Part shown: piece by piece, positions 21,401-24,130 of the stretch
How the letters are laid out: each line of letters opens with the position of its first letter
Position numbering within the stretch: the stretch's first letter is position 1
Source: Candidatus Undinarchaeales archaeon
GTDB taxonomy: Archaea > SpSt-1190 > JASMDC01
Length of the DNA: 43,225 bases
NCBI GenBank assembly: GCA_030753015.1
Contig: JASMDC010000030.1
Location: 1-43,225, forward strand
Direction: 5' to 3'
Notes under the pieces: model-generated
What the model saw: only the letters and a program-made list of their open reading frames with translations
Told to the model about the DNA's origin: nothing
Databases searched by the model: none
Program-made: the position numbers and the translations under genes

Positions 21401-24130
21401 GCAGAAGTCACCCCAGACGCCCGAACCACGGTAGCTGACATTCGCGCTGAGCAGTTCGTTGGAGACGATTATGCCGACATCATCCCTGTCACCGTTCTGG
21501 CCGGTAGAGCTGTCGTCCACATCGTATCGCCGATTGCTCGACATGGGGACGTTGAGGGATATGGGCCCGATATTGACGCCGGTGTACCCGATGGAGTCGC
21601 TGTTGCGCGCCATGCCGGGGGTCGATACATCACGGATGAGGGGATCGCCGGCGAGGGTGACGAGGGCCGTCAGCTCGTACTGGAACTCGGTAACCGAATT
21701 ACCTCCCTGCCCTCCCTTCTCCAGCATGCCCACGAGGTCGTTCACGTGCTGCTCGAGCCCGGGGGGCGGGGCGCCGGTCCGCATCGAGCTGCGCACGTCC
21801 CCGGCCAGCAGGCGGAGCTGGCGGGCCACGGCAGAGATTGCGGCTGTGCGCTGGTCGAGAGCGGCCTGGCCCCTGCCCGTGCGCTCGGCCATCGTGCATG
21901 GATCGAGAGTGATGCCGCCGAGGACGTCCGAACTGCCCACGGCGCATGCGTCCCAGAGATCGGACATCGCCCGCTGACAGGCAAGGAGCATAGAAGGCGC
22001 GGTGATGACCGAACGGGCCGATGCGGCGACGACGGTCGCGTTGGCGATCTTGCAGTCACCATTACACTTGGAGGGACAGGTCGCTTTCTCGCGTATACAG
22101 CAATCGCCCTCCTCACCGGGTTTGACGACGCATTCGTAGGTGCCCTTCTCCTCGTCCTTCTTGAACCGCAGGACCTCGCCGCACGCATCCTTCGTATCGC
22201 ACTTCTCGCCCTCGGACGGATCACCGATCTCGCATGCTGACGCGAACGCGCAGGGAACGGCCGCGCAGAGCGGGCATTCTGCGGCCTCCTCGACGGATTT
22301 GCTCTCTTTTAGCTCCGGTGCCGAGCCCGTGGAGTGCTGGAAGGCGGGACCGCCGCTGCCCGGTGTGCCCCCGATATCCCGGCAAGCCTGCTCGAACCGC
22401 TCCTGAACGAGTTCCGGGTAGTATGGCCCGTGACCCCTCTTCCGGCAGTAGTAGTTCGCGTTGTTCCACTTGGTACCGGCACCGTAGTACTTCTCACACG
22501 AGCGCATCATGGAGTCGAATGACGAGGCGCCTCCCTTGCGGTAGTTGATCGCGGTCTCCATAGCACCCATGCCGCGGTTGTAACCGAACTGGACAAAGGA
22601 GAGGGCCTCACTGCTCGACGCACCCAACGAACCGGCCTTGTTCAGGTTCGCAGCAAGTTCCTTGAGCCCCAGGTCGATGCCAAGGTCGGCGTTCCCCTTG
22701 CACGCACAGTACAGCGGGGAGCTCTTGTCCACGCGGCATGGATGGTCGACCTGCATGATACCGCCGCAATTTACGCTTGGATTGCACGAGGACTCCTGCA
22801 TCATGAGGGCCGCGATCTGGAGCGGGTCCACGCGTCCGTTCAATCCGTGCTTCGCCATATAGCGCTCGACGGTCTTCATGTAAGGAGCGCACGCGCCCAA
22901 GCTGCTCGAGCCGAGCTTGCCCATGTCGCCGCCCTGGCATCCGAAGGCGCCCTGTTCACCCTCTGAAGGGTCCTCGGTCTGGCCAGCCGTGGAACCCCCC
23001 CCGCCAGAGTAGTAGGCCTTGATGTCCAGAGGGTCCATGTATTGCCCTGGACCTTGTGGGCGTGCGATGAGGATAGCGAAGTGGAGGTGCGGCACCTTGT
23101 TCCCGAGCCCGACGGCACCCAGGTTCGTACCTGCAGTGACGTGTTTGCCACCGCTCCCGTCCGGGACGTGGAACGCAAGGCTCTTCATGTGCGTGTACCA
23201 GGCGAAATAGTACGTTTTGCCCTTGTACTTGAGCGGCTTGTCGAACTTGAGGAGTACGCTGTTGGGCGTGTCCGGTGGTGTGGTCCACTTCGTGTGACCG
23301 CGCTCGCTGTAAACGAGGGTACCGTCTGCGACGGCGTAGGTCGCGGTGCCCGCGGGGACGTGGATATCGATGCCCCGGTGTCGCCCCGCTGCGCCGTAGG
23401 TCTTCCATTGCGATTGACTCGTCCCCCGGAGCGGTTCGACGAGCTTGCCGCCCCCTGAACCGGACTGCGTGCTTTCGCCATCACCAGTGCCTGTGCCCGT
23501 ACCCTGGTCGGCCCCACTCCCGGAGCCGCTCCCGGTCGCCTCGTCCTCACCGCCACCGACCTCTCGCCCTTCGTCGGGACGACACTCATCGAGCCCCTTC
23601 ACCTCGCATCTTCGCCCCGCGGCCTGGTCGCAGAGCGCGGGTCCGAGGCCCTCGCTGGCGACCTTCATCGCCGTGAGCCCCTCCCCGCCAAGACGGGGAT
23701 CGCAACTGTCCAGTCCGAGCCCTTTTACCTGCTCGATGGCCTTGTTGCAGATCCAACACTGCTGGATGAACCCATCCTGTGCAACTACCATGTTAGTGGA
23801 GATTGTGGAGTAGTGTTGCACCATCTGCTCGTACGCGCCGGCCATGGCGTCGAGGTAGTCGGCCATGTTGTCGAACTCCTGGCCGGTGCAGGGGATAGCG
23901 AGATTGGAGATGTACGGCGCACTCGCACCCGAACTGCCGATGGCGTCGAGCGCTAGACCGCCGATCTCGGTGGTTTCCACCTCCTCCACGCCGTCCTTGG
24001 CTTTCTTGAGCTCCCCCTGCGCGTATCCGTCCTCGATATCCAGGCGCTGGTCTCCGGCGATGACCGAGGCTAGCACCAGGGCGAGCACGAGGAGGACACA
24101 TAGGGCTGATGACCGTTTCATAATCCCCAC
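18467..24130 (-). CDS. Giant secreted protein: M23 peptidase + lytic transglycosylase-like domain + Cys-rich repeats + Pro/Thr linker + CARDB/Ig-like domains
   Basis: Signal peptide; HRGIDIH...YTHM...PHLHF (M23); [10 protein letters not shown].NP...GIMQV...YNRG (SLT/lysozyme-like); many CxxxC pairs; VRAVVNNTG (CARDB-like). Confidence 0.85.
   Translation of the reverse strand: [1887 protein letters not shown]
20410..20555 (-). repeat. Pro/Thr-rich low-complexity linker inside the giant protein
   Basis: [48 protein letters not shown]. Confidence 0.85.

Follow-up and report, generated by a model that had tools for sequence, protein, structure and literature searches.

The closest described counterparts of the locus presented here are the archaeal peptidoglycan hydrolases (PGHs). 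According to the main text of Strock et al. (2025; PMC12352652), 175 of 3,706 archaeal genomes encode modular PGHs, and killing was shown experimentally; only architectures with at least one catalytic domain and at least one recognised cell-wall-binding domain were kept, and 'Undinarchaeota' occurs there 0 times. The present locus lies on a contig from a Candidatus Undinarchaeales archaeon (JASMDC010000030.1, working name C41; 43,225 nucleotides (nt)), the complete length of which was analysed and is referred to below as the window. Its principal gene encodes a predicted secreted protein with two candidate catalytic heads, an M23 peptidase domain and a GH23/goose-lysozyme-like (SLT-like) domain. 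The best explanation of this protein, and probably the correct one, is that it is exported and, as a murein hydrolase with two heads, acts on exogenous bacterial walls. The M23 protein 'Woldo' of Halogranum salarium, as portrayed in its published account, is likewise a secreted M23 protein in a murein-less archaeon and has been read as an anti-bacterial weapon. In the same literature, the haloarchaeal PGHs are small and carry a wall-binding domain, whereas the window protein has about 1,900 amino acids (aa) and two heads, belongs to a giant family of 17 members, and has no recognised wall-binding domain, which places it outside the modular PGHs of the published screen. Because that screen required such a domain, archaeal anti-bacterial arsenals may be undercounted.

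Two further groups of DPANN proteins are comparable. GH23 'large lytic murein transglycosylases' are described, in the relevant portions of two reports, from Woesearchaeota and other DPANN, and attack on bacterial walls has been proposed (PMC9723730, PMC10936187). These proteins (Vigneron et al. 2022 and a study of oxygen-deficient-zone DPANN) come from the same archaeal clade as the window GH23-like head, which differs in being fused to M23, in its lineage-specific scaffold, in its 3.85-Mb genome and in its shifting position among paralogs. The SPEARE proteins of Nanohaloarchaeota, in the sections that describe them (Hamm et al. 2019, PMC6642349), combine serine protease, LamG and restriction-endonuclease domains with a transmembrane (TM) anchor, and target an archaeal host. 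Like the giants described here, SPEAREs are, according to those sections, multi-copy and largely extracellular DPANN proteins that join hydrolase and adhesion modules, account for several percent of the genome and have been put forward as agents of attack on another cell. A Pfam scan of the window protein detected no serine protease, LamG or restriction-endonuclease domain, and no TM segment is apparent beyond the signal peptide.

A different comparison is offered by the PrgK-like hydrolases of conjugation systems and phage tails, in which LytM, SLT and CHAP domains occur together and breach the sacculus locally. PrgK-type proteins likewise place M23/LytM, SLT and a cysteine peptidase (NlpC/P60 or CHAP) in one large protein. 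The window scaffold, unlike theirs, is found only in this genus among 121 archaeal genomes, and the locus contains no type IV secretion system or phage genes. BLAST searches revealed no relationship: 72,556 plasmid records and 50,697 phage records yielded one weak match each.

Murein hydrolases that archaea direct against bacteria have been published before, and the kind of system is thus known. What is new is a lineage-specific giant family of 17 members with swapped multi-enzyme heads, pilin-like accessory genes, an adjacent SecA and a large marine genome. A literature search found no paper on giant cysteine-rich archaeal wall hydrolases, and the main text of the Undinarchaeota paper mentions neither peptidoglycan nor M23 nor SecA. 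Archaeal antagonism of bacteria has been shown only recently, and only with small haloarchaeal enzymes; the present locus suggests a heavier investment by a planktonic marine archaeon, the giant proteins accounting for approximately 100 kb of coding sequence.

The giant gene and its product

The giant gene occupies 18467-24121 on the minus strand, which is the strand of all its domains given below. The open reading frame (ORF) is a single frame of 1887 codons (18467-24130), but its likely start is the ATG at 24121 (residue 4), which has AGGTGG 5 nt on its 5' side and yields a protein of 1884 aa, in agreement with the 1884-aa form in protein collections. Residue numbers of this protein (P0001) run from the GTG at 24130. 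An AT-rich element, TATAAAGATA (24174-24183, minus strand), lies 53 nt upstream of the ATG; by the archaeal consensus it is a possible TATA box, an assignment that is suggestive only. A scan for sigma-70 promoters remained at background, with 4 sites against an expected 2.1 ± 1.4.

A predicted Sec-type signal peptide (residues 4-26, 24053-24121) precedes an N-terminal cysteine-containing domain (residues 28-230, 23441-24049) that is common to the paralogs, belongs to no known family and has no significant match in a PDB search. After a Gly/Ser/Thr linker come the M23 domain (residues ~245-360, 23051-23398) and the GH23-like domain (residues 394-595, 22346-22951), the latter containing conserved Cys. 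The remainder comprises a cysteine-rich middle scaffold (residues 600-1419, 19874-22333), within which a Pro/Thr linker at 20396-20560 carries N-glycosylation sequons, and a C-terminal module of about 465 aa with a conserved cysteine-rich tail (residues 1420-1887, 18470-19873). The protein has 95 cysteines and 14 N-x-S/T sequons, and is probably N-glycosylated and disulfide-rich.

The initial annotation had described a giant secreted surface protein with two peptidoglycan-degrading domains. The size and the secretion stand: hydropathy detects a sole hydrophobic segment, which is N-terminal and signal-peptide-like, and export of the protein is thus supported. The surface location is less secure, as hydropathy gives no C-terminal membrane anchor, nor any other beyond the signal peptide. 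The motifs on which that description was built all lie within 22370-23440, as had been stated, with HRGID at residue 251 (nt 23380-23366), YTH at 312 and HLHF at 348 in the first domain, and ALMMQESS at residue 441, GIMQV at 457 and YNRG at 517 in the second.

The M23 head

The first head is a member of the LytM/lysostaphin type of peptidase (Pfam PF01551), with which it was compared. Peptidase_M23 matches residues 250-355 at E 7.1e-10 and 39.4 bits, well over the cut-off of 28.7, and the domain scores 44.9 bits in the genome scan. HRGID, YTH and HLHF align onto the HxxxD motif, the catalytic histidine and the HxH motif of the solved enzymes 9gy1, zoocin A (5kvp) and LytM (2b44), and the original assignment of this domain is thereby confirmed. 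The catalytic residues are H251, D255, H314, H348 and H350. Four of these (D255, H314, H348 and H350) are invariant in all 30 aligned M23 relatives (alignment A3), while at the first zinc ligand, where the window protein has a histidine, no fewer than 90% of its closest relatives have an aspartate. The subfamily is further marked by an extra conserved insert, GHTxW..PPDTP (GHTKW..PPDTP in the window), in which H279 is invariant.

M23 domains are common among relatives, being found in 22 of the 121 sampled archaeal genomes. Two paralogs of the window protein, on contigs C20 and C53b, hold a different, canonical M23 that scores 100-125 bits, and for this reason M23 seems to have entered the giant family twice.

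The GH23-like head

The second head has borderline profile scores. Its motifs, QESS (with the candidate catalytic residue E446), GIMQVD and GYNRG, correspond to the GH23 motifs E-S, G-(L/I)-M-Q and Y-x-N/N-x-G. E446 is invariant in all 24 GH23-like relatives. The Pfam SLT model (PF01464) is reached at E ≤0.01 by 13 of the 24 family members, and the paralog representative P0006, at 21.9 bits, is over the cut-off of 21.3. The family profile finds MltC at E 0.0049 and g-type lysozymes at E 0.0095-0.04, the catalytic glutamate being aligned, and an hhalign comparison with Escherichia coli EmtA (E 0.0019, 100 columns) has the ES, GLMQ and YxNG motifs colinear. A feature search of the ESM Atlas, which is distinct from a fold test and provides a lead, returned SLT and lysozyme-like clusters at 0.94-0.95. 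Designed repeat proteins, which appeared as PDB matches of a smaller profile (A2), were rejected as a summed helical-repeat artefact.

The GH23 assignment is accordingly to be regarded as borderline, the tests being individually weak but concordant. The earlier description of this domain as SLT/lysozyme-like is upheld by the motifs, by the invariant glutamate and by several such tests, but not by the Pfam SLT score of the window protein itself, which is below the cut-off. There are also hints that the head may be a hydrolytic lysozyme rather than a lytic transglycosylase, because the aspartate that follows MQV in GIMQVD also occurs in the g-type lysozymes of the alignment but not in MltC.

The GH23-like module is rarer than M23, occurring in 4 of the 121 archaeal genomes. 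Its relatives co-occur with Amidase_2, Amidase_3, NlpC/P60, M15_4, LysM and glucosaminidase domains. Outside the genus, the organism-labelled relatives are all from DPANN (10 of 10), comprising seven from Woesearchaeota and others from Pacearchaeota, Diapherotrites and Micrarchaeota.

The host genome and the absence of murein synthesis

The window belongs to a genome (G000) of 3.85 Mb in 117 contigs, estimated to be 98.9% complete with 5% contamination; a second genome of the same genus (G001) was available for comparison, and both are approximately 99% complete. G000 contains 8 TBP repeats, corresponding to 4 TBP genes, and 5 TFB genes with matches over the cut-off, families that among the controls occur only in the 4 archaeal ones. 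Sigma70_r2, present in 10 of 10 bacterial controls, was detected in 0 of 17 candidates and nowhere in the G000 bin. A search of G000 for small-subunit rRNA found none. The genome is archaeal, and the contig is native to it: the tetranucleotide profile of the window correlates with the genome mean at r=0.988 (rank 44 of 67 contigs ≥10 kb), and the window lines up in the same order with 64 kb of the G001 contig C10, the nucleotide identity being 79-92%. Contig C10 bears a tRNA-Phe whose 40-nt intron is located at 37/38, an archaeal trait. The presence of TBP and TFB, the lack of sigma-70 and the collinear sister contig with its intron-bearing tRNA together bear out the archaeal origin that had been proposed for the giant protein. 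Some members of the sequence cluster carry the submitters' label 'Methanopyri archaeon'.

The proposal of an attack on foreign walls presupposes a host without a murein pathway, and this is what was found. Mur_ligase_M, the PBP Transpeptidase family and FTSW_RODA_SPOVE were each detected in 0 of 2 genus genomes and in 10 of 10 bacterial controls. With no murein synthesis families in the genome, any murein must come from outside. The missing Mur-ligase family argues against pseudomurein as well.

The genomes of the genus are 3.6-3.85 Mb in size with about 60% GC, and all 15 other genomes of the class are 0.6-1.2 Mb. A big genome within or beside a reduced DPANN clade is unusual. The large genome and the presence of SecA in an archaeon (see below) are two unrelated oddities of this lineage.

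A family of 17 giant paralogs

The initial annotation treated the window protein singly, and although its reading of a two-domain protein was sound, it overlooked membership in a larger family. G000 contains 17 giant ORFs (1067-2850 aa, 4-7% cysteine) that have the C-terminal module and the cysteine-rich tail in common. Of the 121 archaeal genomes searched with a profile of this module, G000 and G001 alone gave matches, with 13 of 50 candidates scoring in each, and a word-based search with the module retrieved only 4 close relatives. The module has no significant match in the PDB (the best was the S-layer protein Sap, E 0.054), and a CARDB-like resemblance is a lead only.

Six of the 17 giants hold peptide- and/or glycan-cutting heads in shuffled arrangements, amounting to 11 wall-cutting domains (4 M23, 4 NlpC/P60 and 3 GH23-like), each inside the giant frame. 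The window protein and the giant on contig C21 have M23 and GH23-like domains; that on C20 has a GH23-like, an M23 and an NlpC/P60 domain; one giant on C53 (C53b) has M23 and NlpC/P60; and those on C46 and C53 (C53c) have NlpC/P60. The remaining 11 giants include one with three C-type lectin domains, one with FG-GAP repeats, one with a Kazal domain and eight without a Pfam match. The GH23-like module is located at residues 395-586 in the window protein, 1639-1830 in the C21 type and 23-229 in the C20 type, and one related protein bears a C39-like peptidase in its place. Since the module positions differ between paralogs, the heads may be viewed as cassettes on a common scaffold.

Giant proteins are also found in relatives of the same class with small genomes (L075, G009:C17; L076, G007:C3; L077, G005:C6). 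M23 is present in 4 of 4 genomes of one family of this class, and stands at the end of three giants with frames of 2297, 2073 and 1203 aa. In another archaeal lineage (L078, G081:C3), a 2631-aa protein ends in a GH23-like domain. A profile search did not detect the C-terminal module of the window family in the giants of L075-L078.

Selection on the two heads

The ortholog in G001 is 81% identical across the two catalytic domains and retains all the catalytic residues, including those of M23. In this one ortholog pair, for which dS is near 1, dN/dS is 0.063 for M23, 0.105 for the GH23-like domain and 0.175 overall (a range of 0.06-0.18). The two heads are the most constrained parts of the giant protein and are under purifying selection, and the two-domain arrangement is no product of chance.

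Proposed function

Taken together, these features point to the following scheme. A protein of about 1,884 aa would be exported by the Sec route, with the two heads near its N-terminus and a flexible linker between them. The M23 head, as a zinc endopeptidase, would cut the peptide cross-links of murein, and the GH23 lysozyme-like head, as a muramidase or lytic transglycosylase, would cut the glycan between N-acetylmuramic acid (MurNAc) and N-acetylglucosamine (GlcNAc). Cutting of peptide and glycan together may breach or dissolve the sacculus, with the outcome being either the lysis of bacteria on contact (antagonism or predation) or the solubilisation of wall debris, and the membrane-anchored C11, S8 and M14 peptidases of the locus could then digest the released material. 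The scaffold and the C-terminal module may hold the heads and display them on the surface of the cell, perhaps together with the pilin-like accessory pair. An immunity protein against the hydrolase would be unneeded because the host is an archaeon without murein. The cell-wall attack on bacteria originally proposed thus gains support from the M23 domain, the SLT-like tests, the archaeal genome and the missing murein pathway. The sequences establish the identity of the domains, their catalytic residues, the secretion signal, the lack of murein synthesis genes, the make-up of the family and purifying selection; murein as the substrate, bacteria as the target, display at the surface, and roles for the accessory genes and SecA are inferred.

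Several observations weigh against this scheme. The SLT match of the window protein (residues 425-533) scores 14 bits when the complete sequence is scanned and 20.1 bits (E 4.8e-4) when the domain is taken alone, in both cases under the cut-off of 21.3; the hhalign probability for EmtA is 14%; and the smaller profile A2 reached g-type lysozymes at E~0.1, ranked behind the designed-repeat proteins. No LysM, PG_binding, SH3 or similar murein-binding domain was found in the giant protein by Pfam at E ≤0.1. AnmK is absent from the genome and no MurQ is over the cut-off, so that use of the released sugars gains no support. Some M23 enzymes act on elastin or glycine-rich peptides, some GH23 enzymes act on chitin, and DPANN-type archaea usually associate with archaeal hosts lacking murein.

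Within the preferred scheme, the paralogs with lectin and FG-GAP modules and the shuffling of the arsenal speak for contact and conflict, and a locus rich in peptidases and a large genome are consistent with scavenging. In the stronger version of the former, the organism would prey on bacteria or be their obligate antagonist, its lysins being polymorphic and swapped as cassettes. This version would draw on the 17 giants, six of them with the 11 interchangeable murein-cutting heads and others with lectin or integrin-like binding heads, on the roughly 18-fold accessory pair, and on export aided by a horizontally acquired SecA; it is a tentative possibility.

It is conceivable, if somewhat doubtful, that the same enzymes act on the same murein in a purely nutritional role, solubilising detrital peptidoglycan and debris for the neighbouring peptidases with no killing. 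Exo-peptidases crowd the locus (three C11, one S8 and one M14, along with transglutaminase-like proteins), a 3.85-Mb genome does not suggest host dependence, and the DNA is present in open marine metagenomes. The status of AnmK and MurQ given above counts against this role too, however, and paralogs that carry C-type lectin and FG-GAP modules on the same scaffold suggest cell contact, while the wall-cutting domains, in their shuffled combinations, resemble an arms-race arsenal.

It is improbable that the heads act on a glycan or peptide other than murein, for instance chitin-like polymers, glycine-rich proteins of an envelope, or the archaeon's own envelope or that of an archaeal host. Such a substrate would be in keeping with the lack of a recognised murein-binding domain, with the borderline GH23 assignment, with the atypical M23 subfamily (its extra insert, and its relatives with aspartate at the first ligand), and with the small, symbiont-like genomes of same-class relatives. 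The fusion of GH23-like relatives to MurNAc-L-Ala amidases, NlpC/P60, M15 and LysM is nevertheless murein-specific chemistry, NlpC/P60 domains have been added in the paralogs, and the lack of the Mur-ligase family leaves no pseudomurein-type wall of the cell's own as a target.

Finally, contamination of the bin by bacterial DNA, or a recently acquired and non-functional bacterial or mobile-element relic, is very hard to credit: a bacterial-type SecA lies 5 kb downstream, bin contamination is 5%, and M23, SLT and NlpC/P60 are typically bacterial, but sigma-70 is absent across the bin, the contig is typical in composition and collinear in a second genome with a contig bearing an intron-containing tRNA, the nearest bacterial SecA is only ~52% identical, dN/dS is 0.06-0.18, the phage and plasmid searches gave one weak match each, and the C-terminal module occurs 17 times in the genome.

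The exported murein hydrolase that is the preferred reading has the practical merit that its domains are concrete and expressible, which opens the way to testing which walls they cut.

Accessory genes and SecA

The gene o951 (15645-18500, minus strand), which abuts the stop of the giant gene, encodes a secreted, cysteine-rich protein of 951 aa that belongs to no known family. It is followed by o609 (13822-15651, minus strand), the second gene of a multi-copy pair, whose 609-aa product starts with RGQ and a hydrophobic stretch. Neither protein has a significant PDB match, and Pfam, NCBIfam and PHROGs returned nothing for o951, o609 or a 572-aa ORF. At least 18 adjacent pairs of homologues are found in G000, each encoding a secreted cysteine-rich protein of ~950 aa and a protein of ~610 aa, on contigs C21, C22, C25, C26, C29, C30, C32, C36, C38, C39, C40, C76 and C117. 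Six of the 17 giant genes directly abut such a pair. Outside the genus, weak N-terminal matches to the pair occur in only 2 of 119 genomes. Of 11 aligned o609 paralogs, 10 start with [KR]GQ followed by a hydrophobic stretch of ~20 residues, which fits the consensus of archaeal class III (prepilin-like) signals. Peptidase_A24 has four matches in each genus genome.

Directly downstream of the cassette formed by the giant gene and the pair is a gene (11278-13749, minus strand) for a bacterial-type SecA ATPase of 823 aa. The four Pfam domains of SecA are all present, and the protein scores over the NCBIfam cut-offs for the SecA equivalog but not over those for SecA2; the SEC-C motif is missing. 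The nearest bacterial homologues of this SecA are only ~52% identical and bear that motif. The sister genome has a 93% identical ortholog and a 63% identical paralog, and full-length SecA is found only in these two genomes among the 121 archaeal ones. In Listeria, export of the autolysins p60 and NamA depends on SecA2. The likeness is that a SecA is genetically linked to exported wall hydrolases, the link in the window being adjacency only; the window SecA differs from that of Listeria in passing the housekeeping equivalog cut-offs rather than those of SecA2. The relevant part of a 2018 review (PMC6098224) states that a substitute for SecA is unknown in archaea.

Exo-hydrolases and other neighbouring genes

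Upstream of the giant gene is a block of exo-hydrolase genes (24321-32671, minus strand). Besides a putative HExxH metalloprotease (24321-25736, minus strand) it includes three clostripain C11 peptidases, one S8 subtilase and a transglutaminase-like protein. All of these except the metalloprotease, together with further transglutaminase-like sequence of the window (25634-32671 and 39252-40514, minus strand), are built alike, with an acidic N-terminal region, a lone TM helix and a linker rich in proline, a common design that suggests a shared way of anchoring exo-enzymes to the membrane. An M14 carboxypeptidase is encoded further downstream of the giant gene. An Rnf-type operon at 263-4897 encodes RnfC, RnfD and RnfG as well as a membrane subunit of the RnfA/E type (Pfam Rnf-Nqr), and an ApbE flavin transferase is encoded next to it.

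Environmental occurrence and variation of the locus

Near-identical DNA is present in marine and seawater metagenome runs, and in three DNA runs that belong to other studies, contigs over the two-domain region show 0 differences from the window. One run from an RNA library (X20), for which contigs only were available, contains identical pieces of the C11, S8 and SecA genes. The giant gene is represented there only by small fragments from its 3' half, and no contig covers 21006-25007, although contigs and gaps from an RNA library prove no state of expression.

In the corresponding locus of G001, the ortholog is separated from the accessory pair by an extra giant paralog, which has a 1319-aa frame and a GH23-like head, and there are a further ~7 kb and 4.7 kb of DNA. 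The variable stretches, as delimited by the collinearity comparison, are G001:C10:83397-99461 and 104420-109182, against 13824-18467 and 23426-24320 of the window, and the locus is thus structurally variable within the genus.

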